Made by a program: the position numbers and the translations under genes. Below, in pieces: positions 7,280 through 39,910 of a stretch of 41,319 nt of DNA. Origin of the DNA: Gammaproteobacteria bacterium (GTDB taxonomy: Bacteria; Pseudomonadota; Gammaproteobacteria; Burkholderiales; SG8-39); the NCBI GenBank assembly GCA_041476585.1, contig JBGOTT010000002.1, positions 1 to 41,319 of the forward strand, written 5' to 3'. The number at the start of each line of letters is the position of its first letter. The stretch's first letter is position 1. Below the pieces are notes generated by a model. It was not told where the DNA came from. It did no database searches and saw nothing but the letters and a program-made list of their open reading frames with translations.

Positions 7280-7285
7280 CGTTTC

Positions 7286-16342: not shown

Positions 16343-16353
16343 GACCATCGATC

Positions 16354-18279: not shown

Positions 18280-18281
18280 CC

Positions 18282-19508: not shown

Positions 19509-20749
19509 CCGAAACCTTGCCGCGCCTGGTCGTATTTACCACGCTGTTTCCAAATCCAGGCCAGCCTGGCGCCGGCCTGTTCATCCGCGAACGGATGTTC
19601 CGGATCGGTCAGCGGCTTCCGCTGACCGTGGTGGCGCCGGTGCCGTGGTTTCCGTTCCAGCATCTGATCCGCCGGTGGCGGCCGCATTTCCGTCCTCCGG
19701 CGCCGCGCGCCGAGATGCAATCGGGCTTCGAAGTGCTGCATCCGCGATTCTTTTCCGTGCCGGCGGTGTTCAAGTGCCTCGACGGCTGGTTGCTTGCGCT
19801 GTGCACGCTGCCGATGATGCTGCGGCTGAAGCGCCAAGGCAGGCTCGATCTGATCGACGCGCACTTCGCCTATCCCGACGGTTTTGCGGCCACGCTGATC
19901 GGGCGCTGGCTCGGAGTTCCGGTCGCCGTGACCCTGCGTGGAACGGAAGTGCCGATATCGCGGACCTGGGTCCGGCGGCGGATGATGATCGCCGGGCTGA
20001 AGCGAGCCACGAGAATCTTTTCCGTGGCCGATGCGCTGAAGCGCCATGTGGTCGCGATGGGGATCGCCGCCGACAATATCGTGGTGGTCGGCAACGGCGT
20101 GGACACCCGGAAATTTCAGTCCACGGACAAAGCCCAAGCGCGGCGGGACCTCGGCATCGCGACCGACGCGCAGGTGCTGATTTCGGTGGGCGGGCTGGTC
20201 GAACGCAAAGGCATGCACCGGGTGATCGAGTGCCTCCCGCTGCTCAAGAAGCGCTTTCCGCGCATCCAGTATCTCGTCGTCGGCGGTGCGAGTCCCGAGG
20301 GTAACTACGGCGCAACGCTGCAACGCCTGGCCGTGGATCTCGGGCTCCGCGACACCGTGCGGTTTCTCGGGCCCGTGGCTTCCGAAAAGCTCAAGGGCCC
20401 TTTGTCGGCGGCCGATGTCTTCGTGCTGGCGACCAGCAACGAGGGTTGGGCGAACGTCTTCCTGGAAGCGATGGCCTGCGGACTTCCCGTTGTCACCACC
20501 CTGGTCGGCGGCAACGCCGAGGTGGTGTGCAGGCCCGAGTACGGCAGATTGGTTCCTTTCGGCGTTCCGGGCGAACTGGCTGCGGCGATCGCCGATGCGC
20601 TCGACACGGACTGGGACCGGGCGCGCATCATCGAATACGCGCGGGCCAATTCATGGGACAGCCGCGTCGCGGTGCTCGAGCGCGAGTTGGTGCAGCTTGC
20701 GCGGTCGCATAGGGGCGCAGCCGCCGGTGCGGCCGCCGGCGGGGGATAG
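19505..20749 (+). CDS. GT4 glycosyltransferase
   Basis: ATGA overlap with the upstream gene. VVFTTLFPNPGQPGAGLFIRER; the C-terminal part has SNEGWANVFLEAMACGLPVVTT. Confidence 0.85.
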   Translation: MTETLPRLVVFTTLFPNPGQPGAGLFIRERMFRIGQRLPLTVVAPVPWFPFQHLIRRWRPHFRPPAPRAEMQSGFEVLHPRFFSVPAVFKCLDGWLLALCTLPMMLRLKRQGRLDLIDAHFAYPDGFAATLIGRWLGVPVAVTLRGTEVPISRTWVRRRMMIAGLKRATRIFSVADALKRHVVAMGIAADNIVVVGNGVDTRKFQSTDKAQARRDLGIATDAQVLISVGGLVERKGMHRVIECLPLLKKRFPRIQYLVVGGASPEGNYGATLQRLAVDLGLRDTVRFLGPVASEKLKGPLSAADVFVLATSNEGWANVFLEAMACGLPVVTTLVGGNAEVVCRPEYGRLVPFGVPGELAAAIADALDTDWDRARIIEYARANSWDSRVAVLERELVQLARSHRGAAAGAAAGGG

Positions 20750-20753
20750 CCCC

Positions 20754-22118
20754 GTGCACGATGCGTACACCTGCATGGTCGCGCGGCTGCTGTTTCCGCT
20801 GCACGAATGGTTGAAGGGGCACAGCACCGTGGCTGTGCGCAGGAAACTCGAGCAGTCGCAGTGGTGGGACAGCGCGCGCATCTCGGCGTTGCAGCTCGAA
20901 CGCCTGCAGCGGCTGCTGCGTCATGCCGCCGAACGGGTGCCATACTATCGCGGGCTGTTCGCGCGCATCGGCTTCGAGCCCGGAAAAGTGCAATCGCTCG
21001 CCGCGCTGCACGAACTTCCGTTCCTGACCAAAGCGATCATCCGGGACAACCTCGGGGGATTGAAGGCGCAAGGCGCGGTCCGGCTGGCGCGCTACAACAC
21101 CGGCGGTTCCAGCGGCGAGCCGCTGATCTTTTTCATCGGCAGGGATCGCGTCAGCCACGACGTCGCGGAGAAATGGCGTGCCACGCGCTGGTGGGGCGTC
21201 GATATCGGCGATCCGGAGATCGTGGTCTGGGGATCGCCGATCGAACTGGGCGCGCAGGACCGCGTGAGGGCGCTGCGCGATGCGCTGCTGCGCACCAGAC
21301 TGCTGCCCGCGTTCGAAATGTCGGAGGCCAACCTCGACCGCTTCCTCGTTGAGATCCGCGCGCGCAGACCGAGGATGCTGTTCGGTTACCCTTCGGCGCT
21401 GAGCCACATTGCGCGCCACGCGCGCGCGCGGCGCGTGCGCATGGACGATCTCGGCGTCAAGGTGGCGTTCGTCACTTCCGAGTGCCTGTACCCCGACCAG
21501 CGCAGGGACATCGCCGAAGTGTTCGGCTGTGCGGTCGCCAACGGCTACGGCGGACGCGACGCCGGTTTCATCGCGCACGAGTGCCCGCAGGGCGGCATGC
21601 ACATCAGCGCGGAGGACATCATCGTCGAGATCGTCGATGCGGGCGGGACACCGCTGCCCGCCGGCCAGGCCGGCGAGATCGTCGTCACCCATCTCGCAAC
21701 GCAGGATTTCCCGTTCATTCGCTACCGCACCGGGGACATCGGCGTAATCGATGCCGCAGGCTGTCCGTGCGGGCGCGGCCTGCCGCTGCTGAAGGAGATC
21801 CGGGGGCGCACCACCGATTTCGTGGTGGCTGCCAATGGCACGGTAATGCACGGGCTGGCGCTGGTCTATGTGCTGCGCGACATGCCCGGCATCCGCGCGT
21901 TCAAGATCGTGCAGGAAAGCCGTTCGCGCACGAGGGTGCTGATCGTGCCGGAGCCGTCGTTCACGCCCGAAGACGAGGAAAAGATCAGGCGCGATTTCCG
22001 CCAGCGGCTGGGCGACGCCACCGAGGTGGTGGTCGAGCGCCTGTTCGACATCCCGGCGGAGAAATCCGGCAAGTTCCGCTATGTGGTCAGCCACGCGTTG
22101 CCCGCGGCGAGCGCCTGA
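20754..22118 (+). CDS. CapK / phenylacetate-CoA-ligase-like adenylate-forming enzyme (ANL superfamily)
   Basis: GTG at 20754 lies 7 nt after GGGGGA; the alternative ATG is at 20775. ERVPYYRGLF, the AMP-binding-like NTGGSSGEP, and IRYRTGDIG. The track ORF start at 20286 is an out-of-context extension. Confidence 0.8.
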   Translation: MHDAYTCMVARLLFPLHEWLKGHSTVAVRRKLEQSQWWDSARISALQLERLQRLLRHAAERVPYYRGLFARIGFEPGKVQSLAALHELPFLTKAIIRDNLGGLKAQGAVRLARYNTGGSSGEPLIFFIGRDRVSHDVAEKWRATRWWGVDIGDPEIVVWGSPIELGAQDRVRALRDALLRTRLLPAFEMSEANLDRFLVEIRARRPRMLFGYPSALSHIARHARARRVRMDDLGVKVAFVTSECLYPDQRRDIAEVFGCAVANGYGGRDAGFIAHECPQGGMHISAEDIIVEIVDAGGTPLPAGQAGEIVVTHLATQDFPFIRYRTGDIGVIDAAGCPCGRGLPLLKEIRGRTTDFVVAANGTVMHGLALVYVLRDMPGIRAFKIVQESRSRTRVLIVPEPSFTPEDEEKIRRDFRQRLGDATEVVVERLFDIPAEKSGKFRYVVSHALPAASA

Positions 22119-22121: not shown

Positions 22122-23567
22122 ATGGGCTCGTTCCGCAAGTCGCTGGTTCTGCAGTTCGCAGAACGCTATTCGGCGCTGGCCGTTCAGATCGTGTCGACCC
22201 TGATTCTCGCGCGGCTTTTGACACCACGCGAGATCGGCGTTTACTCGGTCGCCGCGGTGCTCGTCGGGCTCGCCCACGTCATGCGCGACTTCGGCGTCGG
22301 CCAGTACATCATGCAGGAGCGCGAGCTTACCGCAGAGCGCATCCGCACCGCGTTCGGCATTGCGATTTTGCTGGGGTGGCTGATTGCGCTGATTCTGTTC
22401 GGAGTTTCGCGATTCGCCGCGGATTTCTATCGTGAGCCCGGGGTCGGCGAGGCAATCGGTGTACTGGTTCTCAATTTTGTGCTGCTGCCGTTCACGACCG
22501 TGCAGGTCGCACTGTGGCGAAGGGACATGAACTTCGTGCAGCCCTACTACATCAAGACTGCCGGAGTGATCGTGTACGCGGTCACCGCGGTAACCCTCGC
22601 ATACGCAGGCTTCGGCTACATGAGCATGGCCTGGGCTGCGGTCGCGGGCGTAGCTACCAACGTGCTGATCGCGAGCACCTTCTGCCGTCACAGCCAGATG
22701 CAATGGCTGCCCGCATTCACGGAATTCAGGCGAGTATTTTCGATCAGCGGCATGGTGAGCGTCACGGTTGCGGCAAAGGAACTGGGGACCGCCGCGCCCG
22801 ATCTGATCATCGGGCGCATGCTCGGTTTCGCGGAAGTCGGTCTGTTCGGCCGGGCGACGGGGTTGGTCAGGATGTTCGAGCAGAACGTGAGCGCCGCGGT
22901 GTCGGGGGTGATGCTGCCGCATCTGTCAGCGGAGCATCGTCGGGGGATCCAGGTCGGAAGCATGTATCTCAGGGCAGCGAGCATGATCACCGTAGCGGCC
23001 TGGCCGTTCTTCGCGCTGCTGGGACTGATGGCCTACCCGGCGATCCGCCTGCTTTTCGGCCCGCAATGGGAAGCGGCGGCGCCGCTGCTGTCGATTCTCT
23101 GTCTGTGGGGCGCGAGCAACGCGCTGTTCTGCTTCGCGGGTTATACGCTGATCGCGGTCGGGGCGGCGCGCGCGAACATGCTGCTGGAATGCACCGTGCA
23201 GTCCGTCACTGTCGCGCTGCTGCTGGTCGGCGCCGTGTTCGGCCTGCACCAGATCGCGCTGGCCGTGACGTGCAGTTCCGCTCTGGCATTCGCCGTCTCG
23301 ACGAACGCGCTGCGGCGGCATATCGGAGTGTCGCTGAAGGATATGCTGGCCGCTACGCGGAAAAGTCTGGCGGTGACGGTGCTGAGCGGCTGCATTCCGC
23401 TCTGGGTGAGGTTGCAGATGGAGATCGGCCCGGACAGCTACGTGCTGCCGCTCGCGCTGGCCTCCGCCGGGGCCGTGGCGGGCTGGCTGCTCGGCGTGTT
23501 TGCGCTGGCCCATCCGGCGCGCGTCGAGATCCTGAATTTGCTGAAGCGAGGGCGTGGCCTTCGATGA
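22122..23567 (+). CDS. Wzx-like oligosaccharide flippase (MOP superfamily polysaccharide biosynthesis protein)
   Basis: 481 aa, hydrophobic throughout (about 12-14 predicted helices by eye). The N-terminus FAERYSALAVQIVSTLILARLLTPREIGVYS is typical of the Polysacc_synt family. Confidence 0.8.
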   Translation: MGSFRKSLVLQFAERYSALAVQIVSTLILARLLTPREIGVYSVAAVLVGLAHVMRDFGVGQYIMQERELTAERIRTAFGIAILLGWLIALILFGVSRFAADFYREPGVGEAIGVLVLNFVLLPFTTVQVALWRRDMNFVQPYYIKTAGVIVYAVTAVTLAYAGFGYMSMAWAAVAGVATNVLIASTFCRHSQMQWLPAFTEFRRVFSISGMVSVTVAAKELGTAAPDLIIGRMLGFAEVGLFGRATGLVRMFEQNVSAAVSGVMLPHLSAEHRRGIQVGSMYLRAASMITVAAWPFFALLGLMAYPAIRLLFGPQWEAAAPLLSILCLWGASNALFCFAGYTLIAVGAARANMLLECTVQSVTVALLLVGAVFGLHQIALAVTCSSALAFAVSTNALRRHIGVSLKDMLAATRKSLAVTVLSGCIPLWVRLQMEIGPDSYVLPLALASAGAVAGWLLGVFALAHPARVEILNLLKRGRGLR

Positions 23568-24484
23568 CCGACGAACCGTTCTTTCTGGTCGGATTCCAGC
23601 GCAGCGGGACCACCATGCTGCGCCTGATGCTGAACGCCCATCCGGACATCGGCATGCCGCATGACTCGGCCGAGCTGTGGTCCGGCTACCAGGCGAAACT
23701 CCCGGGCTACAACGATCTGCGCACCCCGGAGGACTCGCGAAGGATGATCGAGGACCTGCTGGCCGAGCCGCGCATCAAGGCGTGGCAGACCGAATTGCCG
23801 AAGCCGATGCTGCTGGCGCAACCGCTGCCGGACAGCTTTGCCGGCGTGATGCGGCGATTCCACGAGGCCTATCTCCACGCGCACGGCAAGCGGTACTGGG
23901 GCGACAAGAACACCGGAACACTGATCGAACTCGATCGACTCAATCGCCTGTTCCCGCAATGCAAGTTCATTCATCTGCTGAGAGACGGGCGCGATTGCGC
24001 GTTGTCGCACCTGTCCAAGGAATACATCTACGGCTACTCCAACGTGCTGCGCTGTGCGCTCGAATGGCGCGAACAGGTCACGCTATGCCGCAAGATGGGC
24101 GCGATGCTGCCCGCCGAGCGCTTCCTCGAACTGCGCTACGAAGACTTGCTGGCGGAGCCGGAGCGCTGGCTCGCGCGCATCTGCACGTTCCTCGGCGTAG
24201 CGTTTTCCCCTGCCATGCTCGAGTACTTCAAGGACGTCGGCAGCAATGTTCCGGACGAGCGGCGCAGCCTGTGGCCGATGATCGATCAGCCGCCGATGCA
24301 ATCCAACACCTACAAGTGGAAGACGAAGATGAGCCCGACCGACCGGGCGGTATTCGAGCGCATTGCCGGCGCGCTGCTGTGCGACTGCGGCTACGAAACC
24401 CTGCCGGCGCCGGTGACCGCCGGCCGCGTGCGCGAACTCTGGTATCACGTCCATGACCGCATCGCATGGCGCCTCAAACGCTGA
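23564..24484 (+). CDS. PAPS-dependent sulfotransferase
   Basis: ATGA overlap with the flippase stop. The 5'-PSB loop is FLVGFQRSGTTML and the 3'-PB motif is IHLLRDGRDCALS. No signal peptide. The track ORF start at 22514 is a spurious extension. Confidence 0.85.
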   Translation: MTDEPFFLVGFQRSGTTMLRLMLNAHPDIGMPHDSAELWSGYQAKLPGYNDLRTPEDSRRMIEDLLAEPRIKAWQTELPKPMLLAQPLPDSFAGVMRRFHEAYLHAHGKRYWGDKNTGTLIELDRLNRLFPQCKFIHLLRDGRDCALSHLSKEYIYGYSNVLRCALEWREQVTLCRKMGAMLPAERFLELRYEDLLAEPERWLARICTFLGVAFSPAMLEYFKDVGSNVPDERRSLWPMIDQPPMQSNTYKWKTKMSPTDRAVFERIAGALLCDCGYETLPAPVTAGRVRELWYHVHDRIAWRLKR

Positions 24485-24492
24485 GGTAGAAA

Positions 24493-25641
24493 ATGCTGCT
24501 GAAACGCATGTCGGTTGCGTTGCGCGATTGGTTGGGACGCGGGTTTCCGGTGTCGGATCCCGCAACGCATTTGCGCCAGACCATGCGCTGGCTGTGCCGC
24601 GCACAGGACGCGGCCGAGGGCGGCGGGGTTTCGCGCAGCTATGCGTTGCGCTGGATGCGCGCGCACCGGCGCCAGGGCTGGCTCGCCGCGTATCCGGAAA
24701 CCACGGGCTACATCATCCCGACGTTTCTCGCCTACGCCAGGCTTGTAGGCGAGAACGAGTTTCGCGCGCGGGCGTTGCGCATGGCCCAATGGGAAGCACG
24801 GGTGCAGATGGACAACGGTGCGGTGCAGGGGGGCGTGATCGGTTTTCCCCCCACTCCGGCGATTTTCAACACCGGGCAGGTGCTGTTCGGCTGGGCCGCG
24901 GCGTACAGGGAAACCGGGGAACAGGCATTTCTCGATGCGGCGCAGCGCGCGGCCGATTTTCTGACTGCGGCGCAGAACCCGGACGGCGCCTGGCGCCAGC
25001 ATGGTTCGCAGTACGCGCGCGCGGGCGTCAACGTCTACGACGCGCGCACGGCGTGGGGATTGCTCGAGGCCTCGCTGGTCACTGGCAAAGCCGTCCACCG
25101 CGATGCCGCGATACGCAACCTCGATTTCGTGCTGACCAAGCAGCAGCCCAATGGCTGGTACGCCGAGTGCTGTCTCGATGACAACCGGCGCCCGCTGTTG
25201 CATACCATCGCCTACACGATGGAAGGCCTGCTCGAAGCGGGCGCGATCCTCGATCTTGCGCGGTTCCGGGACGCCGCGCGCAAGGCCGCCGATGCGCTGT
25301 TGAAGCTGCAGCGACCGGACGGAAGCCTTGCAGGACGCTTCGATTCTGCTTGGCTGCCGGCTGCCGGCTGGAGCTGCCTGACCGGCGATGCGCAGACCGC
25401 GATCGTCTGGTTCCGGCTGGCCGAGATCACCGGCGAGGGCGCGTACGCGGACGCGGCGCGGCGCATGAACCGTTACCTCGCCGGCACCCAGGACTTGAGT
25501 TCGGGAGATCCCGGCATCCGGGGCGGTATCAAGGGTGCGCAGCCGATCTGGGCGGAATACGGCACCTACGAATACCCGAACTGGGCGGCCAAGTTCTTCG
25601 CGGATGCATTGATGCTCGAACTCGCCTGCCGGCGGCCATGA
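24493..25641 (+). CDS. alpha/alpha-toroid protein with prenyltransferase/squalene-cyclase-like repeats; function unknown
   Basis: Repeated QW-like motifs: AQNPDGAW, KQQPNGWY and LQRPDGSL. The spacing pattern is helical-repeat-like. No signal peptide. Confidence 0.5.
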   Translation: MLLKRMSVALRDWLGRGFPVSDPATHLRQTMRWLCRAQDAAEGGGVSRSYALRWMRAHRRQGWLAAYPETTGYIIPTFLAYARLVGENEFRARALRMAQWEARVQMDNGAVQGGVIGFPPTPAIFNTGQVLFGWAAAYRETGEQAFLDAAQRAADFLTAAQNPDGAWRQHGSQYARAGVNVYDARTAWGLLEASLVTGKAVHRDAAIRNLDFVLTKQQPNGWYAECCLDDNRRPLLHTIAYTMEGLLEAGAILDLARFRDAARKAADALLKLQRPDGSLAGRFDSAWLPAAGWSCLTGDAQTAIVWFRLAEITGEGAYADAARRMNRYLAGTQDLSSGDPGIRGGIKGAQPIWAEYGTYEYPNWAAKFFADALMLELACRRP

Positions 25642-25681
25642 CGTCATCGGCCGCATATCCGCGAGAGCCGGTGGACAGCAC

Positions 25682-27181
25682 GTGCTTTTCAACTCCTACG
25701 AATTCCTGCTGATCTTCCTGCCGCTGACGGCGGCAGGATTCTTCGCGCTGTCTGCAGGGGGCTATTTGCGCAGCGCCGCAACCTGGCTCGCGCTGGCCTC
25801 GATCGTCTTCTACGGTTACTGGAGTCCGAATTACGTCCTGCTTTTGCTCGCTTCGATCGGCGGCAACCTGGTTGCCGCGCGCGCCGTCCTGCGCTATCGG
25901 ACATCGCAGCGTTTTTCCACGGCGAAAAGAGCGCTTGCGCTGGCGGTGATCGCCAACCTCGGTGCACTGGGCTATTTCAAGTACGCCAACTTTTTCGTCG
26001 ACAGCCTCAACTTCGTGGCGCACACGCAGCTCACGCTGGCACACGTCGTTCTGCCGATCGGCATCTCGTTCTTTACCTTCACGCAGATCGCTTTTCTCGT
26101 CGACACTTACCAGGGCAAGGTGCAGGAATCCAGGGTCATGCCCTATGTGCTGTTCGTGACCTATTTTCCGCACCTGATCGCCGGCCCGGTCCTGCACCAC
26201 GCCGAGATGATGCCGCAGTTTGCGCGCGACGAAACCTACCGCTTCCGCCTGGACAACTTTCTCATCGGTTCCGGGTATTTTCTGATCGGCTTGTTCAAGA
26301 AGGTCGTCCTCGCCGACGGCATCCAGCCCTACGTCGGTCCGGTTTTCGAAGCCGATCCCGCCTACCCGCTGAGTGCGATGGAAGCCTGGGGCGGGGTGCT
26401 GGCGTATACGCTGCAGATCTATTTCGATTTCTCGGGATATTCCGACATGGCCATCGGCCTGGCGAAGATCTGCAACGTGGATCTGCCGCTCAACTTCAAT
26501 TCGCCCTACAAGGCAACCAGCATCACCGATTTCTGGCGGCGCTGGCACATGACACTCTCGCGCTTTCTGCGCGATTACCTTTACATCCCGCTCGGCGGCA
26601 ATCGCAAGGGAGTGTTCAGCCGCTACCTGAATCTGATGATCACGATGCTGCTGGGCGGATTGTGGCACGGGGCCGGGTGGACTTTTGTCATCTGGGGCGG
26701 ATTGCACGGTTTATATCTCGTGATCAACCACGGTTGGCAGGCGCTGCGTGTGCGCTTGCTCGGCCACGATCTGGTGCGCTCGACCCGTCTGGGTCGGGCG
26801 CTGGGGGTGCTGACGACATTTCTGTTCGTCGTGATTGCGTGGGTGTTCTTTCGCGCGACGAGCCTGGATGCGGCGCTGCGAATTCTCCATGCCATGTTCG
26901 ACCTGCAAGGGCTGCAGGAAGGATGGGCCCGGTCCGGAAAGCTCGATGCGTTTGGCGGAAATCGGCAGGTGGCGTGGATCACCGTGCTGCTGGCAATGGC
27001 CTGGGCATTGCCGAACTCGCAGACGCTGATGGGGCGTTTTCGCGAGACCGCGCGCGTTGCAAGCGAGAGGCGCGGCGAATGGGCCTGGTTCTCGCTGGGT
27101 TTCATCGTTGTGCTGTTGGGCCTGCTCGCCATCATCAACGGTTCGCGCGGCGTATCCGAATTCATTTACTTCAACTTCTGA
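25682..27181 (+). CDS. MBOAT-family membrane O-acyltransferase (AlgI/DltB-like)
   Basis: MLFNSYEFLLIFLP N-terminus. FWRRWHMTLSRFLRDYLYIPLGGNR contains the catalytic His region, followed by GGLWHGAGW. Confidence 0.9.
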   Translation: MLFNSYEFLLIFLPLTAAGFFALSAGGYLRSAATWLALASIVFYGYWSPNYVLLLLASIGGNLVAARAVLRYRTSQRFSTAKRALALAVIANLGALGYFKYANFFVDSLNFVAHTQLTLAHVVLPIGISFFTFTQIAFLVDTYQGKVQESRVMPYVLFVTYFPHLIAGPVLHHAEMMPQFARDETYRFRLDNFLIGSGYFLIGLFKKVVLADGIQPYVGPVFEADPAYPLSAMEAWGGVLAYTLQIYFDFSGYSDMAIGLAKICNVDLPLNFNSPYKATSITDFWRRWHMTLSRFLRDYLYIPLGGNRKGVFSRYLNLMITMLLGGLWHGAGWTFVIWGGLHGLYLVINHGWQALRVRLLGHDLVRSTRLGRALGVLTTFLFVVIAWVFFRATSLDAALRILHAMFDLQGLQEGWARSGKLDAFGGNRQVAWITVLLAMAWALPNSQTLMGRFRETARVASERRGEWAWFSLGFIVVLLGLLAIINGSRGVSEFIYFNF

Positions 27182-27182
27182 G

Positions 27183-28268
27183 ATGCGTGCGCCGCTTTCC
27201 GGACTGATGTGGCTTGCAGCGGGAGCGCTGGCCGCGCTGCTCGTGATCGAGGGAATTTTCAGGCTGCTGCCGGTGCCCATGGGACTTTACCGTACCGAGC
27301 AGTTCGATCGCTGGCCCCTGCAGGGGTATCAGCCCGGGCAGTCTTTCACGTCATCGGAAACCTGGCAGATGCTGAACGTGCGTCGTGGAAAGACCAACAA
27401 CTATGGCCACCGCGCGCCATTCGATTATCGCGTGGGATCGCATCCGGTGATCGTCGTCGGAGACAGTTATGTCGCGTCGCCAAAGAACGTCTATGAAGAA
27501 TCCATACAAGGGCGACTGGGCGAGCATCTTGGATCCCGCGAGTCGGTGTATGGCCTTGCTTTTACCGGCCTGTCGGCCAGCGACTATCTGGCCCTGTCGC
27601 GACTTGCCAAAGCGGAATTCGCTCCCTCGGCCGCAGTGTTTGTCGTCATCGATGGAGATTTGTCCGAAAGTCTCCCGGCCCGGCTCGGCTATTATCACTT
27701 CGTGCCGCAAGGCGATTCGTTCCGGCTGGAGTACCTTCCGTTGCGCGGCGAGACCCTCGGGAAAGCAGTCCGCAAAACGATCGGTGAGATATCCCTCTAT
27801 CGCTACATCTACGACAACCTGGGTTTTTCGTCCGAGGCGCTATTCAAGTTCGGCCGGAGCGGGGAGCAGCCTCAACCAGCCCGCGTTGTGGGGGATGCCG
27901 TACTTCAACGCAGGATGGTCGATTACTTCCTGGCCGAACTGCCGCGAGCGCTCGGCGTGCCTCCTCGATGCATCGCTTTCCTCGTTGATTCGGATCGCTA
28001 CGCTATCTATGATCCCCGGTCGCCCTCGGAGCCCAAGGAAACGCCGGAGGTGCGACGTTACTTTCTCGACCAGGCGCAAGAATCGGGGTTCGCGGTCAGC
28101 GACCTGGACCCCGTCTTCCGCGCGCGCTACGCCCGGGATCGCACGAAGTTTGACTTCTGGCCGATGGATCGGCACTGGAACAGGACGGGTCATAGTGTGG
28201 CTGCAGACGAGGCCTATCGCCTGCTGTTTGGCGCGGGCAAGCGAGAGTGCCTGCCGGGTTTGCATTGA
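27183..28268 (+). CDS. AlgJ/AlgX/DltD-like SGNH-type partner of the MBOAT (polysaccharide O-acetylation)
   Basis: ATG 1 nt after the MBOAT stop. The N-terminal signal-anchor is LMWLAAGALAALLVIEGIF. VIVVGDSY is a GDS block and DRHWNRTGH resembles the AlgJ/AlgX D-x-H-W block. The start is uncertain because no clear RBS is present. Confidence 0.6.
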   Translation: MRAPLSGLMWLAAGALAALLVIEGIFRLLPVPMGLYRTEQFDRWPLQGYQPGQSFTSSETWQMLNVRRGKTNNYGHRAPFDYRVGSHPVIVVGDSYVASPKNVYEESIQGRLGEHLGSRESVYGLAFTGLSASDYLALSRLAKAEFAPSAAVFVVIDGDLSESLPARLGYYHFVPQGDSFRLEYLPLRGETLGKAVRKTIGEISLYRYIYDNLGFSSEALFKFGRSGEQPQPARVVGDAVLQRRMVDYFLAELPRALGVPPRCIAFLVDSDRYAIYDPRSPSEPKETPEVRRYFLDQAQESGFAVSDLDPVFRARYARDRTKFDFWPMDRHWNRTGHSVAADEAYRLLFGAGKRECLPGLH

Positions 28269-28499
28269 TACGGCAGGCAGCTCGCTGACCAGGAGGTTCT
28301 GTCGCAAAGTTTGATCTTCTGGTCCAATTGCCTATGTTCCGGGAATCGATCAAACGGCGCGACGGGTATGATTGATGCTAAAGGTAGACGGTATTGGATG
28401 CACGGACTGAAGTCGGCGTGCGGTATTGCGACCTCGGCCGCCTGCAGCCACGGCCATCAAGCCGGCACCGGAATTCCCAGGCGTTAAACGAACAAGCCA

Positions 28500-29474
28500 A
28501 TGGATACCGCAACGAATCGGCTCGGGCCCGATCGGGAACTCACGATCTGCACGGTGTCTTTCCACAACGCGCCACACCTCATTGCGAACTGGGAACTCGG
28601 GGAGCGCCTTAACCGCGGCAAGGGACGACTTAAGTGGATCGTTGCGGAAAATACGCCCGACGGATCGAGGCACAAGCTGACAGCGCCCGATCCACGGTTT
28701 CGTCTGATCGCCGGCACGGAAGGGCGACACCGGGACAATTATCACCATACCATTGCCTTGCAAAAAACGCTCGGTCTGGTCGATACGCGGTTTTTGCTGG
28801 TACTGGATCCGGATTTCTATATCGTCCGCCCGAGTTGGCTGCAAGAGGTACTGGATTACATGGTCGAGGGTGGTCTTGGAATGTTCGGAGTCCCGTGGCA
28901 TCCAAAATATATCGAGAAATACCGCTATTTCCCCTGCGTGCACTGTTTCTTCGTCGATCTCGAGAAGGTTTCGATGTCCGAGCTCGACTTCCGCCCTTCT
29001 TGCCCGGACGTGGTGAACGGCGAGGAGCAAGAGAGTGGCCGCGACCGCTCGGGTGTGATTGCCAGAGTGTTCAACACACTTACGCTGCGGCACAGGCAAA
29101 AGGACTACCGCGACACCGGGACACGCATGTATCTTCGCTTCGCCAATGATCATCGCGTGAAATACGAGTGCGCCACGCCTGTCTATCGACTCCCCGAGGA
29201 CTTCCCCGGTACGCGAAATCCGCTGGCATTGCGCAGCCGTCTGATCGAAGCCGTGCTTCCCGACAGCCTGTGTTACGTTCCGAAACGGCGGGGCGCGTTT
29301 GCACGCAACGGTTTCCTCGAGCGGGCGCCGGATTCCAACCGCGGGCATTGGGAAGAGTTTCTCTGGCGTGGACAGCCGTTCGGTTTTCATATGCGCCGCA
29401 ACGCGGAGAAAATGCAGCGCGACGAAGACGTGGAGCTCGATGCCCTGGCACGCATTCTCCGCCAGTTTGGTTAG
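28500..29474 (+). CDS. putative GT-A-fold glycosyltransferase (GT2-like); low-GC gene
   Basis: LTICTVSFHNAPHL matches the GT2-type N-terminal beta-strand. FLLVLDPDFYIV is a DxD-like motif. The amino-acid composition is balanced, unlike the antisense ORF 28350-29390. No clear RBS. Confidence 0.45.
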   Translation: MDTATNRLGPDRELTICTVSFHNAPHLIANWELGERLNRGKGRLKWIVAENTPDGSRHKLTAPDPRFRLIAGTEGRHRDNYHHTIALQKTLGLVDTRFLLVLDPDFYIVRPSWLQEVLDYMVEGGLGMFGVPWHPKYIEKYRYFPCVHCFFVDLEKVSMSELDFRPSCPDVVNGEEQESGRDRSGVIARVFNTLTLRHRQKDYRDTGTRMYLRFANDHRVKYECATPVYRLPEDFPGTRNPLALRSRLIEAVLPDSLCYVPKRRGAFARNGFLERAPDSNRGHWEEFLWRGQPFGFHMRRNAEKMQRDEDVELDALARILRQFG

Positions 29475-29564
29475 ACCTCAAAGAAACTCAAAGCCCTGCT
29501 CAGACCGGCGGACACCCAACAGAACCGAAACGTTCAGCAGGTCGCCGCTTAAAGTGTACCGAGC

Positions 29565-30323
29565 TCACCGCTTGACGATGCAAGCCATAGAATCAACGGC
29601 ATCCCGGAGAGGAGAATCAAAAAACCGAATCTCGCCGGCCTTGTCGATTAGCTGATGTAGCGCAGGCAGGTCCTTGAGAAGGTCCAGTGTTTTTCGACTT
29701 TTTGGCAGCGAGCTTTCCAACTCGGGTAGCTGTTGATCCAAGTCCTCGATCACATAGATTCCGCCAGAAGCCACATACGGCCATAGCGTCCGAAGCGAGG
29801 TCTGCTGATGAAAAGAGGCGTGGCTGCCATCGTCGATCACGATATCCAGTTTTGGATAATCCGCGACCACCCGCAGAAGGTCTTCCGGCTTACCCTGGTC
29901 GCCTCGAAAAATCGCGGTACGCGGTTGGTGTAGCATCGAAAAATCATCAATATCAAAGCCCACAATACTCGCATGTGGGAAGTATTCAGCCCAAAGCTGG
30001 AGAGATGGACAGGTCACCCGTGGGTCACCCCTGTCGCGTTTCCTGGCCAAGCCGATCTCCAGGATCGTGACCGGTAGGTGTCTCATTGCATTGAAGAGAC
30101 GGTGGTAATGCCTTGTGTACCCGTTGAACGGATAAAATGTGACTCCCTTGTCGGTCGGGTGTATCGAGGCGATTCGAGTCAGTTCGTCGTAAAGCCGCCA
30201 CCGGCATCTAAGATCCCGATACACAACGGCAGCAAGCTTGTGAAGGAATTCCATCTTATCCATACCGAGCGGGAGACCGAAGGGCAGAGACAGGGCACGT
30301 CGAATTGGGAACAGAAAAGTCAT
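29565..30323 (-). CDS. class I SAM-dependent methyltransferase (CmcI/TylF-like; likely sugar O-methyltransferase)
   Basis: ATG at 30323 lies 6 nt after AGGAGA. ILEIGL, GFDID and the DIVIDDGSH ... GGIYVIED pattern are typical of this O-methyltransferase family. GC is about 50%. Confidence 0.7.
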   Translation of the reverse strand: MTFLFPIRRALSLPFGLPLGMDKMEFLHKLAAVVYRDLRCRWRLYDELTRIASIHPTDKGVTFYPFNGYTRHYHRLFNAMRHLPVTILEIGLARKRDRGDPRVTCPSLQLWAEYFPHASIVGFDIDDFSMLHQPRTAIFRGDQGKPEDLLRVVADYPKLDIVIDDGSHASFHQQTSLRTLWPYVASGGIYVIEDLDQQLPELESSLPKSRKTLDLLKDLPALHQLIDKAGEIRFFDSPLRDAVDSMACIVKR

Positions 30324-30474
30324 GAGCGATCTCCTGGGGGGTGCGTCCGATGGCGAGTGGACGAATATGCGCGCAGCCGCGCACCCGACAGAATCGAAGG
30401 GTTCAGCAAGTTGCCGCTTGATCAATCCGCCATACACGAGATTTGACGATGGCTACTGCCGGGGACCTTCCCAA

Positions 30475-31203
30475 TCAACGCGACTTGTGGAGCCAGGAAA
30501 GTGTAGAGATAGCGCTCTGCATTATTCTGAACCAACGATCTCCAAGAGTCTTCGCGGCAAACGCACGATAGGTGTGAACTCTCCCACCGCTCTGTGCATC
30601 CAGCCACGCATCTATACTCTGGCCGGCTTTCTCCCACGCCGCAGTAGTATGTTTCGCTAGCTGGCTTCCCTTCCTGATCCCCAAGAACAGGAGGTCGTAG
30701 TGGTCCCAGTTTGTCCAGAAGCGGTACAACGAAAAGGACGACGCAAGGTCCGCCGCCCTTTCAAAATCCCTCTTTGTCAGGTTTTTGTAGTAGTTCCAAC
30801 CAAGTGCGACCGTCAATGGCGATCCCTCGGGCCCGCTTCGGGCTGTTCCGTGCTCCGGACGGCCGGTTGTCGCGCAGGTCATTATTACAAGGCCACCTGG
30901 CCGACATAGACGGATCATATTTCGAAAGGTCTCCGCCGCGTAGGGGTTGTGCTCCATCGCTTCGCAGGAAATGGCCACGTCGAAAGTCGCGTCGGGAGCA
31001 TCGTACTTCTGGCCCTCGCAAACGACATCGACCCCCTTCCCCGGGCCTACATCAAGTCCGACGTAGTCGCACTCTGCGAAGAAACTACGTATCGATCCAG
31101 CAATGTCCAGTGATCCGATTTCCAAGACCCTGCTACGGTGAAAGAACTGATCAAGGTGTACCGATAGTAGCCCGACGTATTCCAACTGCGCGGCGTGAGC
31201 CAT
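30475..31203 (-). CDS. class I SAM-dependent methyltransferase (Methyltransf_11-like)
   Basis: ATG at 31203 lies 5 nt after GGAGG. VLEIGSLDIAG (motif I), YVGLDVGPG, FDVAISCEAMEHNP and LCRPGGLVIM. The track ORF extends to 31467 without recognisable homology. Confidence 0.7.
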   Translation of the reverse strand: MAHAAQLEYVGLLSVHLDQFFHRSRVLEIGSLDIAGSIRSFFAECDYVGLDVGPGKGVDVVCEGQKYDAPDATFDVAISCEAMEHNPYAAETFRNMIRLCRPGGLVIMTCATTGRPEHGTARSGPEGSPLTVALGWNYYKNLTKRDFERAADLASSFSLYRFWTNWDHYDLLFLGIRKGSQLAKHTTAAWEKAGQSIDAWLDAQSGGRVHTYRAFAAKTLGDRWFRIMQSAISTLSWLHKSR

Positions 31204-31524
31204 TATCGCCTCCAAGACCACGTCTAAGTAAAAATGAATGCGAAATATAACTGTACCAGACGGCCGGGCCGCACAGCGAACGAAGCGTGGTATCTGCCCG
31301 CTAGGATCGAGACGGTGCTCGAAGGGAGCGCTCCTGACTTGGAAGAGCCTCGGCATCGATTCCAAGGTAGAACTACCCGTGGCGGCGGGGCGTCGGAGAA
31401 AAGCCGAACCACCGAGCTCGAACGGTGCGAGACACGGCAGTGACCATTGCCGAGTGGCGGACAGCATGTAATGCGTTCAAGCAGCGACCTTTTCTCTAGC
31501 CTATTTTCTTAACTGCATTCTTCA

Positions 31525-31770
31525 TCAATCGAATGTTTCCGATTCGGACAACAGCAATCTGGCACGATCTTTCTCGGAGAGCATCGACTCGCAACCGATC
31601 GGCCATAGGATGCCGATGGCGGGATCGTTCCACCGAATGCAGCGCTCGAACCGCGCGGCGTAGTATTCCGTTGTCTTGTACGGAAAATCCGCATGCTCAG
31701 ACAAGACAGGAAACTCGTGCGCAAAGCCTGCGGGTATCCAGGCGATGCGCTTGATTTCGGCGGAGAGCCT
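31525..31770 (-). pseudogene. rmlC: 5'-truncated dTDP-4-dehydrorhamnose 3,5-epimerase fragment (C-terminal about 80 aa)
   Basis: LSAEIKRIAWIPAGFAHEFPVLSEHADFPYKTTEYYAARFERCIRWNDPAIGILWP...MLSEKD matches only the C-terminal half of RmlC. The N-terminal cupin half is absent. Confidence 0.75.
31720..31734. repeat. 15-nt direct repeat CGCAAAGCCTGCGGG, copy 1 (inside the minus-strand rmlC fragment)
   Basis: Identical 15-mer at 31720-31734 and 31810-31824, read directly from the sequence. Confidence 0.9.
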
Positions 31771-31809
31771 GAACCTGCGCCGTGCCGCGCTCGGCAATCC
31801 TACGTACAA

Positions 31810-31824
31810 CGCAAAGCCTGCGGG
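31810..31824. repeat. 15-nt direct repeat CGCAAAGCCTGCGGG, copy 2 (at the 5' boundary of the plus-strand rmlC fragment)
   Basis: Identical 15-mer exactly 90 nt downstream of copy 1. Confidence 0.9.
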
Positions 31825-32029
31825 GATGGCGCACGGCTTTCTGGTGCTGTCGGACAGCGCGGAGTTACTCTACAAGACGACAGACTACTGGGCGCCCGAG
31901 CACGAGCGCTGCATCATCTGGAACGATCCGACGCTGGCCATCGAATGGGCGGCCTTGCAGTGAGCGCCGCTGCTGTCGAACAAAGATGCCGCCGGGCAGG
32001 CGTTCCTTCAGGCGGAGGTGTTCGAGTAA
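31811..32029 (+). pseudogene. rmlC: 5'-truncated dTDP-4-dehydrorhamnose 3,5-epimerase fragment with an in-frame TGA
   Basis: KPAGMAHGFLVLSDSAELLYKTTDYWAPEHERCIIWNDPTLAIEW is followed by TGA (31961-31963). The same frame then continues as APLLSNKDAAGQAFLQAEVFE to TAA (32027-32029), a typical RmlC C-terminus. Confidence 0.75.
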
Positions 32030-32052
32030 CGCCGGCCTCGGGACATCGCGAG

Positions 32053-33966
32053 TCAGGGGCCCTCGCCGATGATGCCCTGGCGCCGCAGCTCGGCCAGCAC
32101 CTGGTCGGCCGCGCCTTCCGGACTCAGGCTGGCGGTGAGGACGCGGATCTCCGGCGCCTCGGGCTCCTCGTAGGGGGAGTCGATACCGGTGAAGTTCTTG
32201 ATCTCGCCGCGCCGCGCCTTCCTGTAGAGCCCCTTGGCGTCGCGCTGCTCGGCGATGCCGAGCGGCGCGTCGACGAAGACCTCGATGAATTCGCCGTCCT
32301 TCAGCAGGCCGCGCGCCATGCGCCGCTCGGCGCGGAACGGCGAGATGAAGGCGGTGAGCACGATCAGGCCGGCATCGACCATCAGCTTCGCGACTTCGGC
32401 GATGCGCCGGATGTTCTCCACCCGGTCGGCGGCGGTGAAGCCGAGATCCTTGGTCAGGCCGTGACGCACGTTGTCGCCGTCGAGGATGTAGGTGTGGTGA
32501 CCCATCGCGTGCAGCTTCTTCTCCACCAGGTTGGCCAGCGTGGACTTGCCCGCGCCGGAAAGCCCGGTCAGCCACAGCACGCAGGCCTTCTGGCCCTTGA
32601 TCGCCGAGCGCGCCGCCCTGTCCACGTCGACGTGCTGCAGGTGGATGTTGTGCGCGCGGCGCAGCGCGAAGCGCAGCATCCCGGCGCCCACCGTGTGGTT
32701 GGTCAGGCGGTCGATCAGGATGAAGCCGCCTGTATCGCGGTTTTCCGCGTAGGGATCGAACGCGATCGGCTGGTCGAGCTCGAGCTCGCATACCCCGATC
32801 TCGTTCAGTTCGAGCTTCTCGGCGGCGAGGTGCTCCAGCGTGTTGACGTTGATCTGGTACTTGAGCGGCGCGATGGTCGCGGCAACGATCTTGGTGCCGA
32901 TCTTCATCGAGTAGGTGCGCCCGCGCAGCATCGGTTGTTCGCCCATCCAGACGACCGTCGCCTCGAACTGGCCGGCCACCTCGGCCGGAGCGTCCGCCGC
33001 CGCGATCAGGTCGCCGCGCGAGATGTCGATCTCGTCCTCGAGCGTGAGCGTGATCGACTGCGTGGCGACCGCCTGTTCGAGATCGCCGCCGGCGGCGACG
33101 ATGCGCGCGACGCGGCTCTCCCTGCCGGAGGGTTGCGCGCGCACGCGGTCTCCGGGGCGTACCGTGCCGCTGGCGATGGTGCCGGCGAAGCCGCGGAAGC
33201 CGAGGTCCGGCCGGTTGACCCACTGCACCGGGAGCCGGAACGGCAGCCGCTGCAGCCGCTGCTCGTCGATCTCGACGGTTTCCAGCCAGCCCATCAGCGT
33301 CGCGCCACGATGCCACGGCGTATGCGGGCTGGGGGCGATCAGGTTGTCGCCCTTCAGCGCCGACACCGGAAGGCAAGTGACCTCGGCGATGCCGAGCTGC
33401 GCCGCGAACTCGCGGTATTGCGCCTCGATCTCGCGGAAGCGCTTCTCCGAATAGTCGACCAGGTCCATCTTGTTGACCGCGAGCGCGACATGGCGGATGC
33501 CGAGCAGCGAAACCAGGTAGCTGTGGCGGCGCGTCTGGGTGAGCACGCCTTTGCGCGCGTCGATCAGCAGGATCGCCGCGTCCGCGGTCGAGGCGCCGGT
33601 CGCCATGTTGCGCGTGTACTGCTCGTGCCCCGGTGTGTCGGCGACGATGAACTTGCGCCGCTCGGTGGAGAAGAAGCGGTAGGCCACGTCGATGGTGATG
33701 CCCTGCTCGCGCTCGGCCGCCAGCCCGTCGACGAGCAGCGCGAAGTCGAGCGCGTCGCCCTGAGTGCCGAATTTCCTCGATTCGCCGGCCAGCGCGGCGA
33801 GCTGGTCGTCGAACAGTACCCGCGTCTCGTACAGCAGGCGTCCGATCAGCGTGCTCTTGCCGTCGTCCACGCTGCCGCAGGTGATGAAGCGCAGCAGGCT
33901 CTTGCGCTCGTGCGACTTCAGGTAGCCGTCGATGTTGCTCGCGATCAGGTCCGAGACGTGCGCCAT
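32053..33966 (-). CDS. cysNC: bifunctional sulfate adenylyltransferase subunit 1 / adenylylsulfate (APS) kinase (CysN-CysC fusion, NodQ-like)
   Basis: The start at 33966 ([11 protein letters not shown]) overlaps the cysD stop by 1 nt (TGATG). GTPase motifs [18 protein letters not shown] and NKMD. The C-terminal APS kinase P-loop is [13 protein letters not shown]. The track ORF start at 34677 is a spurious extension. Confidence 0.92.
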
Positions 33967-35198
33967 CAGAAGTAGCCTTCCTGCTTCTTCTTCTCCATCG
34001 ACGCGGCCGCGTCGCGATCGATCACGCGGCCCTGGCGCTCCGAGGTGCGCGCCAGCAGCATCTCCTGGATGATCGCCGGCAGCGTGTCCGCCGCGGATTC
34101 GATCGCCCCGGTCAGCGGATAGCAGCCCAGGGTGCGGAAACGCACCTTCTTCATCATCGGCACCTCGCGCTCGCCGAGCGGCATGCGCTCGTCGTCGACC
34201 ATGATCAGCGTGCCGTCGCGCTCCACCACCGGGCGCGGCCTGGCGAAGTACAGCGGCACCACGGGAATGTTCTCGACGCGGATGTACTGCCAGACATCGA
34301 GCTCGGTCCAGTTGGACAGCGGAAACACGCGCATCGACTCGCCCTTGTGCTTGCAGGTGTTGTAGAGCCGCCAGAGCTCGGGGCGCTGGTTCTTGGGGTC
34401 CCAGCGATGCTGCGCCGAGCGGAACGAGAACACGCGCTCCTTGGCGCGCGACTTCTCCTCGTCGCGCCGCGCGCCGCCCAGCGCGGCGTCGAATCCGTGC
34501 TTGTCCAGCGCCTGCTTCAGCGCCTGCGTCTTCATCACGTCGGTGTGGATCGCCGACCCGTGCACGAAGGGATTGATGCCCATCGCGGTCCCCTCGTCGT
34601 TGACGTGCACGATCAGGTCCATGCCGGCCTCGACGACGGCGCGGTCGCGGAACGCGTACATGTCGCGGAACTTCCACGTGGTGTCGACGTGCAGCAGCGG
34701 GAACGGCGGCCTCGCCGGGTAAAAGGCCTTTCGCGCCAAGTGCAGCATCACCGAACTGTCCTTGCCGATCGAGTAGAGCATTACCGGTTTGGCGGCCTCG
34801 GCGACCACCTCGCGCATGATGTGGATGGCTTCCGCCTCGAGCCGCTGCAGGTGGGTCAAGGTCGACAACTTCGTGCAGGGCGCGATCGGATCGACCTTGT
34901 CGCCCGGGCTGGAAGGGTCGGAATTCCGGTTCGTGAAAATTTGATTAATGTTGTTGGCGGCTTGGCCGGTTTCTGGGGCAATCGCCTTCCTCCTCACTCC
35001 CCTGCCGCGCGGACCTACCGGAACGGCGCCCCAGCCGCCGGCCTGGTAGGCTTTCAGTGCGCGGATCACCGTGGGTTGGCTGAGACCAGCTTTCGCAGCC
35101 GTTTCTACAATGGAGAAGCCGGAGAGCCTGAATTTCACCGCTTGGACCCTGCGCTCGTTAAGCGCTTCGACGGTAACGTTACGGCCATCTGTTGGCAT
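33966..35198 (-). CDS. cysD: sulfate adenylyltransferase subunit 2 (CysD, NodP-like) with an in-frame 110-aa N-terminal extension containing a transposase-like HTH
   Basis: The CysD core runs from [21 protein letters not shown], with PP-loop [13 protein letters not shown], to the C-terminal [12 protein letters not shown] at 34868 would give a canonical 300-aa CysD. Upstream and in frame lies [43 protein letters not shown] (HTH), with ATG at 35198 and no stop codon between them. Confidence 0.8.
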
Positions 35199-35231
35199 GG
35201 CGTCAAAAATATCGAAACAAAAGTTGTTGCA

Positions 35232-35260
35232 AGATTAAACAAATAACAACAGCGTGTCAA
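35232..35260 (-). promoter_or_regulatory. candidate sigma-70 promoter for the HTH-cysD-cysNC unit
   Basis: On the minus strand: TTGACA (35255-35260) - N17 - TAATCT (35232-35237), about 34 nt upstream of ATG 35198. It lies in the only AT-rich gap between the heparinase-like gene and cysD. Confidence 0.5.
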
Positions 35261-35369
35261 CGTAACGCTATCCGCCAACATGAAGCTTTGCAAATGGACC
35301 CGACCGGATTCTCGAACAGATCATCCCGATCGCCCGCGCGGCAGGCGATGCGCGGCTCGAGGTCTATTC

Positions 35370-39127: not shown

Positions 39128-39143
39128 GACCGGACCTGCACGC

Positions 39144-39893: not shown

Positions 39894-39910
39894 CCGATCG
39901 TGCGAGGTCG

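Follow-up and report, generated by a model that had tools for sequence, protein, structure and literature searches.

A sulfotransferase and PAPS-synthesis genes in an exosortase-A type exopolysaccharide locus that probably makes a sulfated polymer

The window analysed here is an entire metagenomic contig of 41,319 bp (JBGOTT010000002.1) from an uncultured betaproteobacterium. Polysaccharide genes fill it almost end to end. They form an exosortase-A (XrtA) type exopolysaccharide (EPS) locus with a sulfotransferase (ST) gene at 23.6 kb and a cysD/cysNC pair for the synthesis of 3′-phosphoadenosine 5′-phosphosulfate (PAPS) at 32–35 kb. The original prediction had placed these three genes within one polysaccharide locus, and they do have polysaccharide genes on both sides. 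The reading we favour, and think likely, is that the variable, decorating half of an XrtA exopolysaccharide locus encodes sulfation: the ST is provided with a local supply of PAPS, and the repeat unit is sulfated before it is flipped. Judged from its genes, the locus probably makes a sulfated polymer. What was observed directly is the identity of the genes, the integrity of their motifs, the synteny and the repeated occurrence of PAPS synthases nearby. Every comparative test that we ran favours a functional link of the ST, polysaccharide assembly and local PAPS supply, a link that is supported at the level of sequence.

Sulfotransferase and flippase

The two genes on which the argument turns first are adjacent.

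22122–23567 (+): Wzx/MOP flippase (Polysacc_synt_3, 5e-58)
23564–24484 (+): PAPS-dependent sulfotransferase of 306 residues (Sulfotransfer_3, TPST-like fold), predicted to be cytoplasmic

The ATG of the ST shares 4 nt with the TGA of the flippase gene (sequence cgATGAcc), an overlap that agrees with the translational coupling proposed in the original prediction. The protein matches Pfam Sulfotransfer_3 (PF13469) over profile positions 1–215 of 216 (2.6e-35; 123 bits, cut-off 27) and Sulfotransfer_1 with 1.7e-14. The motifs GFQRSGTTML (residues 10–19) and LLRDGRDCALS (residues 138–148), from which a PAPS-type enzyme had been recognised, are both read in the translation, and the profile matches bear the family assignment out. 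No signal peptide or membrane segment was found in the ST, as had been claimed: strand 1 of the fold begins at residue 6, too close to the N-terminus for a signal peptide to fit, and hydropathy over 19 residues peaks at 1.22.

By sequence, the closest solved proteins are TPST1 and TPST2 (1.6e-17; human and tick tyrosylprotein sulfotransferases) and the ST domains of the CurM and OLS polyketide enzymes. Residues R13-S14-G15-T16-T17 align with the PRSGTT loop of TPST1 (5′-phosphosulfate binding), and R140 and S148 align with its RDGR...S segment (3′-phosphate binding). K115 aligns with the TPST lysine in CNKDP, and D34 falls at the position of the TPST catalytic glutamate when counted from the P-loop in the sequence alignment. 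From the alignment and TPST2 numbering, D34 and K115 are the putative catalytic base and lysine. Over 30 homologues (43–69% identity), conservation of R13–T17, D34, K115, R140 and S148 is complete or no lower than 90%, so the PAPS-binding residues are kept on alignment. The family has at least 533 detectable relatives; the exact ST sequence is unique in the database, the window being the only contig that carries it. An AlphaFold (AF2) model built from the homologue alignment has a predicted local distance difference test score (pLDDT) of 92.9 and a predicted template modelling score (pTM) of 0.90. A Foldseek search with the model returned TPST1 (8e-13; template modelling (TM) score 0.65–0.73), together with the CurM ST, mycobacterial Stf proteins (Stf9), cytosolic SULTs and NDST. 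Identity to TPST is 21–24%.

Sulfotransferase loci in other genomes

Loci of related sequences are numbered with the prefix L. Orthologues of the ST at 62–69% identity all come from uncultured bacteria, and those that are named or have an XrtA context are annotated as Betaproteobacteria. Five genes of the window travel with the ST in a tblastn panel: the flippase gene and the following four.

24493–25641 (+): (α/α)6-barrel protein, predicted to be cytoplasmic (AF2 model, pLDDT 84)
28500–29474 (+): cassette gene, possibly a GT-A-type glycosyltransferase (weak Glycos_transf_2 match, E 0.012)
29565–30437 (−): methyltransferase-like gene (weak Methyltransf_24 match; orthologues of 37–39% in L002 and L006)
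35370–37757 (−): heparinase II/III-like protein of 795 residues (Hepar_II_III_N 1.5e-18, Hepar_II_III_C 7.2e-21)

In L002–L004, which come from two NCBI metagenome-assembled genomes (MAGs) and one ENA assembly, the XrtA locus is collinear with the window. The order is XrtA–EpsI, a glycosyltransferase, an AsnB-type amidotransferase, two further glycosyltransferases, a CapK-like ligase, Wzx, the ST and a small open reading frame (ORF), followed by the barrel protein, two unknowns, MBOAT, another unknown, the heparinase II/III-like gene (on the minus strand) and a second ST. A Wzx orthologue lies directly upstream of the ST in L002–L004, L006, L092 and L093, and L006 and L007 keep Wzx, ST, barrel and heparinase-like gene together. 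Orthologues of the barrel protein (64–74% identity) stand beside the ST in L001–L008, those of the possible glycosyltransferase (54–60%) beside ST and barrel in L002, L006 and L007, and those of the heparinase-like protein (39–43%) occur in L002, L003, L006 and L007. More distant ST homologues (45–47%; for example, L092, L093, L098, L100 and L103) have Wzx immediately upstream and the barrel gene about 3 kb away on the opposite strand; barrel identities in the distant loci are 48–50%, and a barrel homologue accompanies the ST family in all loci examined, these five included. The 4-nt overlap of Wzx and ST recurs in the distant loci L092 and L093, by called gene coordinates; L092 is from a MAG whose ST cluster is annotated as Gemmatimonadota. 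Because the overlap with the flippase recurs at such a distance, the ST would be expected to work on the substrate of Wzx, and we regard this as the strongest single argument.

PAPS synthases are found repeatedly in these loci. In three of the six close loci (the window, L001 and L005) the ST has a PAPS synthase no more than 10 kb away; for a random gene the expectation is about 1% as a rough estimate. In L001, with three STs, and L005, with four STs and the closest ST orthologue (69%), the synthase is a PUA_2–ATP-sulfurylase–APS-kinase fusion (APS, adenosine 5′-phosphosulfate) situated among the STs. Sat and APS kinase are encoded 3–4 kb upstream of the ST in 4/26 distant loci of at least 9 kb; the metagenome scan with the ST alignment behind this count mostly returned short contigs or relatives of 30–37% identity, and the count gives rough co-occurrence only. 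The same ST family has thus been joined by ATP sulfurylases of two kinds that are not homologous to each other, both of them linked with an APS kinase, and chance is an unlikely explanation for such convergence.

The PAPS-synthesis cassette

The pair in the window lies 7.5 kb from the ST on the opposite strand, and its two genes overlap by 1 nt.

32053–33966 (−): cysNC, ATP sulfurylase GTPase subunit fused to APS kinase, 637 residues
33966–35198 (−): HTH–CysD fusion of 410 residues, with a helix-turn-helix (HTH) domain of HTH_28 type at about 4–75, a linker and the CysD core at about 109–410
35226–35260 (−): TTGACA...ATTTGTTTAAT block, candidate promoter/operator, conserved upstream of HTH-cysD
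35302–35388 (+): 5′ remnant of cysQ (3′-phosphoadenosine 5′-phosphate (PAP) phosphatase), 29 codons, DRILEQIIPIARAAGDARLEVYS (tblastn against L009 CysQ)
31525–31869 (−) and 31664–31963 (+): C-terminal fragments of RmlC, dTDP-4-dehydrorhamnose 3,5-epimerase (PF00908, 5.5e-21 and 1.9e-16)

The cysNC product matches NF004035, the bifunctional CysN/CysC family, with 1045 bits (cut-off 715), TIGR02034 with 656 bits, Pfam APS_kinase with 1.4e-69 and TIGR00455 with 257 bits (cut-off 139). Its nucleotide-binding motifs are intact in the translation (GTPase motifs, the kinase P-loop GLSGAGKST and LDGDN). The CysN–CysC fusion of the original prediction is thereby confirmed, and since the GTPase subunit is fused to an APS kinase, PAPS is the product of the pathway. 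The neighbouring gene had been called simply cysD. That assignment holds for residues 109–410, which match NF009214 with 553 bits (cut-off 413) and retain the PP-loop SIGKDSS; the rest of the call needs amending, as the ORF encodes an HTH–CysD fusion (HTH_28, 9.8e-7).

The fusion is kept in frame in five other loci (L009, L010, L011, L012 and L018). Window and L011 share about 70% identity in the HTH domain, which is therefore under selection and not the product of a mis-called start. An IS630 remnant or mis-called start as the origin of the N-terminal domain (HTH_28/IS630-type) was ruled out by this in-frame conservation at the protein level in five other loci. We know of no description of an HTH–CysD fusion. 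In Comamonas testosteroni JL40 (L016), a single ORF of 639 residues at 8987–10906 (+) runs from HTH_23/29/33 domains through a degenerate middle part, which is DDE_3-like (IS630 transposase-like), to a CysD core that is complete, and a similar arrangement is seen in L017 and L023 from Pseudomonas. From its domain order, the L016 ORF looks like a domesticated transposase N-terminus fused to CysD.

The block upstream of HTH-cysD was compared in five unrelated contexts (the window, L009, L010, L011 and L012). TTGACA is present in four of the five (TTGCCA in L012), and several of the ATTTGTTTAAT-like AT-rich positions are invariant. The block may serve as a promoter, as an operator bound by the HTH domain or as both, and the fusion may autoregulate the cassette. 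A consensus promoter scan made no call at the block, and terminator-like matches were at background level. Obligatory co-transcription of cysD/cysNC with the heparinase-like gene was considered and is less likely, as the conserved TTGACA/AT-rich block precedes HTH-cysD wherever the cassette occurs.

In other genomes the pair belongs to a recognisable cassette. The nearest relatives of CysNC (85–86%) have a divergent cysQ before them and glycosyltransferases and a deacetylase after them, with a Sulfotransfer_1 gene in L010. CysQ is the PAP phosphatase that clears the by-product of sulfotransferases. Comamonas testosteroni JL40 (L016) and the Pseudomonas isolates L017 and L023 have, in this order, divergent cysQ, HTH-cysD, cysNC, DUF1214 and Sulfotransfer_3 genes. 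Comamonas testosteroni JL40 and Pseudomonas alkylphenolica possess the cassette but not the ST of the window. A CysD search of genome contigs matched at least 600 stretches, CysD being highly conserved, of which 80 loci, scattered over phyla, were kept. For the 72 CysD loci that span 12 kb or more, an ST was detectable no further than 10 kb away in 5/15 HTH-linked cassettes and in 3/57 others (Fisher p = 0.008). The PAPS genes are physically linked to an ST in the window, L010, L016, L017 and L023.

The borders of the cassette carry scars. The cysQ stub (48% over 29 residues against L009 CysQ; tblastn E 1e-7 for that single comparison) is divergent from cysD and stops at the 3′ end of the heparinase-like gene. 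The RmlC fragments converge and partly overlap, an inverted duplication of pseudogene debris between cysNC and a methyltransferase gene. In the collinear loci L002–L004, the MBOAT region is followed directly by the heparinase-like gene with no PAPS cassette between them. The cassette therefore looks, from these comparisons, to have been inserted into the locus by recombination, with the cysQ stub and the rmlC debris at the junctions.

Weighing of the alternatives

Several observations weigh against a dedicated sulfation system. The closest syntenic XrtA loci, L002–L004, lack PAPS genes up to a distance of 10 kb from the ST, so local PAPS synthesis is optional. CysQ, the usual partner of the cassette, is truncated, and the window has no intact PAP phosphatase. 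The cassette in L011 adjoins the sulfate-uptake genes for a sulfate-binding protein (Sbp) and CysA, a housekeeping-like context. As the conserved upstream block recurs with the cassette, expression may be governed by the cassette and not by the EPS locus. Genome-wide, cysD/cysNC could be the organism's only sulfate-activation genes; by analogy with RaxPQ of Xanthomonas, a sole copy would still leave the functional link to the ST intact. No Wzy-type polymerase (Wzy_C) or priming sugar-phosphate transferase was matched among the window ORFs scanned; these genes may lie beyond the contig end, and Wzy_C genes are present near the ST in L001, L005, L006, L092 and L093. Finally, the solved structures closest to the ST belong to sulfotransferases of protein tyrosine and to polyketide 'activating' enzymes rather than to sulfotransferases of carbohydrates.

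Some of these points would be explained if cysD/cysNC were ordinary, possibly the only, sulfate-activation genes lying in an EPS locus, with the ST fed from the cell's common PAPS pool, much as RaxPQ feed RaxST in Xanthomonas, and with no dedicated supply. Sbp and CysA beside the cassette in L011 and XrtA loci that manage without local PAPS genes fit such an arrangement; the TTGACA/AT-rich block could be the cassette's own context-independent promoter/operator, and no genome was seen twice, with two CysD loci, among the 80 loci kept of at least 600 CysD stretches. We nevertheless consider it unlikely. Ordinary assimilation does not account for the enrichment of adjacent STs and cysQ at HTH-linked cassettes, for the recruitment of a non-homologous PAPS synthase to sister ST loci independently or for the retention of the APS-kinase fusion. 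The cassette is also present in Pseudomonas (L017 and L023), where cysD/cysNC are core genes that are not known to lie beside cysQ.

A different possibility is that the ST acts on something other than a polysaccharide, either tyrosines of a secreted or PEP-CTERM protein or peptide, in the manner of TPST and RaxST, or a lipid or small molecule. The best solved matches are tyrosylprotein sulfotransferases, and XrtA is itself a protein-sorting system. The identity to TPST is, however, low, and to our knowledge no carbohydrate sulfotransferase of this clan has been solved for comparison, so the fold carries no information on the acceptor. The constant neighbours of the ST are the GH88/epimerase-like barrel, the heparinase-like protein and glycosyltransferases; because the barrel and heparinase-like proteins have carbohydrate-active folds, a protein acceptor is less favoured. 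No RaxX/RaxB-type peptide precursor or exporter was seen, and the overlap of ST and Wzx recurs in distant loci. Taken together, these points make a non-polysaccharide acceptor improbable, and the coupling to Wzx and the carbohydrate-active neighbours are suggestive of a carbohydrate acceptor.

The structural matches also raise the idea that sulfate is a transient leaving group, as in CurM/OLS or in the formation of the carrageenan anhydro-ring. The barrel or lyase-like enzymes would then eliminate it to leave a deoxy, unsaturated or anhydro sugar, and the mature EPS would be unsulfated. CurM and OLS ST domains are among the closest structures to the ST, which is invariably accompanied by an (α/α)6 barrel and usually by a heparinase-II/III-like protein (a β-elimination fold), both apparently cytoplasmic. 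This is pure analogy, and the three or four STs of different families in sister loci fit decoration at several sites better than a single activation step; a high-capacity local PAPS supply likewise suits stoichiometric sulfation of a polymer. We hold a transient sulfate to be very improbable.

A decaying mosaic in which the sulfation genes do not function as a system is hardly credible: the truncated cysQ and two rmlC fragments flank the cassette and GC content, about 65% over the 41.3-kb window, dips to 57–60% at 26–31.5 kb, indicating patchwork, but the ST, HTH-cysD and cysNC are full-length with intact catalytic motifs and scores like those of intact family members, and third-position GC (about 0.76–0.86) is coding-like in the pair of stop-to-stop ORFs enclosing cysNC and cysD.

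The exopolysaccharide locus and its decoration genes

The remaining features of the window are as follows.

2463–22118 (+): core XrtA/PEP-CTERM exopolysaccharide locus (NCBIfam and Pfam matches), in the order export protein, chain-length determinant, tyrosine kinase, outer-membrane protein, ATPase, WecB epimerase, deacetylase, FemAB-like protein, XrtA–EpsI fusion, glycosyltransferases, NAD-dependent sugar epimerase/dehydratase, UDP-glucose dehydrogenase, amidotransferase, CapK-like ligase
11274–12809 (+): XrtA–EpsI fusion (TIGR03109, 357 bits; cut-off 208)
25682–27181 (+): MBOAT protein, O-acetylation pair (MBOAT, 4.4e-31)
27183–28268 (+): AlgX/SGNH-like protein, O-acetylation pair (ALGX, 5.9e-6)
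30475–31467 (−): methyltransferase-like gene (Methyltransf_11/23)
37874–40882 (+): GT4 glycosyltransferase, methyltransferase and polysaccharide deacetylase, with which the polysaccharide locus continues (profile matches)

Exosortase A and the XrtA hallmark genes are thus found in one locus, in agreement with the exosortase-A type named in the original prediction. Besides TIGR03109, ten XrtA/PEP-CTERM models pass their curated NCBIfam cut-offs: the export protein (TIGR03027), chain-length determinant (TIGR03007), tyrosine kinase (TIGR03018), outer-membrane protein (TIGR03016), ATPase (TIGR03015), deacetylase (TIGR03006), FemAB-like protein (TIGR03019), two glycosyltransferases (TIGR03088 and TIGR04063) and the amidotransferase (TIGR03108). 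The genes at the left contig edge are unrelated to EPS: a DsbA-like fragment at 55–366 (−) and tandem enoyl-CoA hydratases at 382–1308 and 1305–2135. The upstream boundary of the locus is therefore placed at about 2.4 kb.

The decorating half has up to three methyltransferase-like genes, a second deacetylase and a further GT4 enzyme. The fall in GC (from about 0.65 to 0.57–0.60) at 26000–31500 spans the MBOAT, AlgX-like, glycosyltransferase-like and methyltransferase genes; it points to a variable, serotype-like segment of the locus that has undergone horizontal exchange.

Sequence searches gave no name to the barrel protein, as all matches are sub-threshold (squalene-cyclase, pectate-lyase and C5-epim_C, E 0.0038); the structure narrows it to a carbohydrate-active (α/α)6 barrel, not to a reaction. 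In Foldseek the model matches the heparin-specific unsaturated glucuronyl hydrolase 3wiw (9e-9, TM score 0.70) and lies near cellobiose/GlcNAc 2-epimerases and GH88/GH105, with glucuronyl hydrolases and 2-epimerases matching about equally well. The family has more than 4,000 relatives, uncharacterised and named automatically as YyaL or DUF1680. As to a glycosaminoglycan-like modification pathway (uronyl C5-epimerase with O-sulfotransferase), the window offers this sub-threshold C5-epim_C match, a UDP-glucose dehydrogenase gene and the heparinase-like protein. The latter matches a heparinase III structure in the Protein Data Bank with 8e-9. Neither it nor the barrel protein shows a signal peptide.

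Proposed mechanism and significance

In the mechanism we propose, the repeat unit would be built on undecaprenyl phosphate by the GT4 enzymes of the locus from UDP-glucuronic acid-type and ManNAc-type precursors, and the polymer would likely contain uronic acid. HTH–CysD and CysN would make APS, which the fused CysC kinase would convert to PAPS next door to the ST. Acting at the cytoplasmic face, the cytoplasmic ST, co-translated with Wzx, would place an O-sulfate on a sugar of the unit while it is bound to its undecaprenyl carrier. Wzx would then flip the finished unit, with polymerisation and export through the XrtA-associated Wzc/OPX components. Other genes of the decorating half would furnish the polymer with O-acetyl, O-methyl and amide groups and would also deacetylate it. 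We infer the acceptor, the order of sulfation and flipping, and the presence of sulfate esters in the final polymer; modification of a lipid-linked unit at the cytoplasmic face before flipping is part of the general Wzx/Wzy model (cited in PMC8205485).

Sulfated polysaccharides have been called uncommon in bacteria outside cyanobacteria, or exclusive to cyanobacteria (PMC8205485, PMC13390465). Wastewater granules, aerobic and anaerobic alike, nevertheless have measurable sulfated glycoconjugates in their EPS, and reference STs found few matches in the dominant organisms (PMC10483923). The close relatives of the ST with examined context lie in Wzx-dependent polysaccharide loci, often with a private PAPS source; in one lineage the locus is an XrtA locus collinear with that of the window. 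This ST family is a concrete candidate for the granule sulfation activity, and it could serve as a metagenome marker for producers of sulfated polymers, which are of biotechnological value. Should the sulfation prediction fail, the locus would be one more decorated EPS cluster. More speculatively, the cassette of Wzx, ST, barrel, glycosyltransferase-like, methyltransferase-like and heparinase-like genes, with an optional PAPS module, might be the missing genetic basis of the 'sulfated glycosaminoglycan-like' polymers, known from chemistry to be widespread, of sludge granules and environmental biofilms. XrtA-dependent floc-formers would then build a uronic-acid polymer and, in the cytoplasm, epimerise or otherwise remodel it and O-sulfate it with enzymes that have no relation to those of animals. 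HTH–CysD would, as a regulator that binds DNA, also link the making of PAPS to its own expression. We regard this larger proposal as rather doubtful.

Comparison with known systems

A Vibrio capsule already provides a published case of the general logic, in which an ST in the company of PAPS genes signals a cluster for a sulfated polysaccharide (PMC11641403). The capsule of Vibrio sp. KMM 8419 carries sulfate proven by NMR, and its cluster has second copies of cysC, cysN and cysD and three STs; its authors call the combination of ST and cysD/N/C a hallmark of sulfated polysaccharide synthesis (PMC11641403). The genes of the window show this hallmark. The Vibrio system is, however, an ABC-transporter (Kps) capsule of a marine gammaproteobacterium, whereas the window, known from its genes alone, holds a Wzx-dependent XrtA/PEP-CTERM locus of an uncultured betaproteobacterium. 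The window also has a CysN–CysC fusion and an HTH domain on CysD, and its pair appears to have come in as a cysQ-linked cassette.

The synechan xss cluster of Synechocystis PCC 6803 is likewise a Wzx/Wzy-type EPS cluster with embedded STs (PMC8205485). It differs in being cyanobacterial, plasmid-borne and without an exosortase, and a term search of the synechan paper found no mention of PAPS or cysN (PMC8205485).

Rhizobial NodP/NodQ with NodH (NoeE) resemble the window in that a CysD/CysN–CysC pair is co-located with a PAPS-dependent carbohydrate sulfotransferase. NodQ is a CysN–CysC fusion. The acceptor there is a lipo-chitooligosaccharide signal and not a polymer repeat unit, and NodPQ are defined by their status as second copies, whereas the pair described here is known from a single contig. 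NoeE gives a weak local match to the P-loop region of the ST; at 32 bits (cut-off 500), the ST does not count as an orthologue of NodH/NoeE.

In Xanthomonas, RaxP/RaxQ (CysD and a CysN–CysC fusion) feed PAPS to RaxST, a cytoplasmic ST that is also Sulfotransfer_3/TPST-like. RaxPQ are also a housekeeping pair, serving both cysteine synthesis and RaxST. The acceptor of RaxST is a tyrosine of a secreted peptide, whereas the ST of the window is coupled to a flippase and carbohydrate-active genes. The raxX-raxSTAB cluster has been described (PMC6637879).

The XrtA/PEP-CTERM EPS loci of floc-forming Betaproteobacteria (for example, Aquincola, PMC9850573) share the full hallmark set, its usual order and the XrtA–EpsI fusion with the window. 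The literature searched held no relevant paper on sulfotransferase and exosortase or on sulfated and PEP-CTERM, in keeping with the earlier remark that such loci are not generally described as making sulfated polymers. XrtA/PEP-CTERM exopolysaccharide loci were reportedly treated by Haft et al. in 2006. The exosortase-A context, the Wzx–ST–barrel–heparinase-like cassette and the cysQ/HTH-cysD/cysNC cassette with its HTH–CysD fusion appear to be undescribed. What sets the window and L002–L004 apart from the known XrtA loci is that they carry the ST cassette directly after the hallmark genes.

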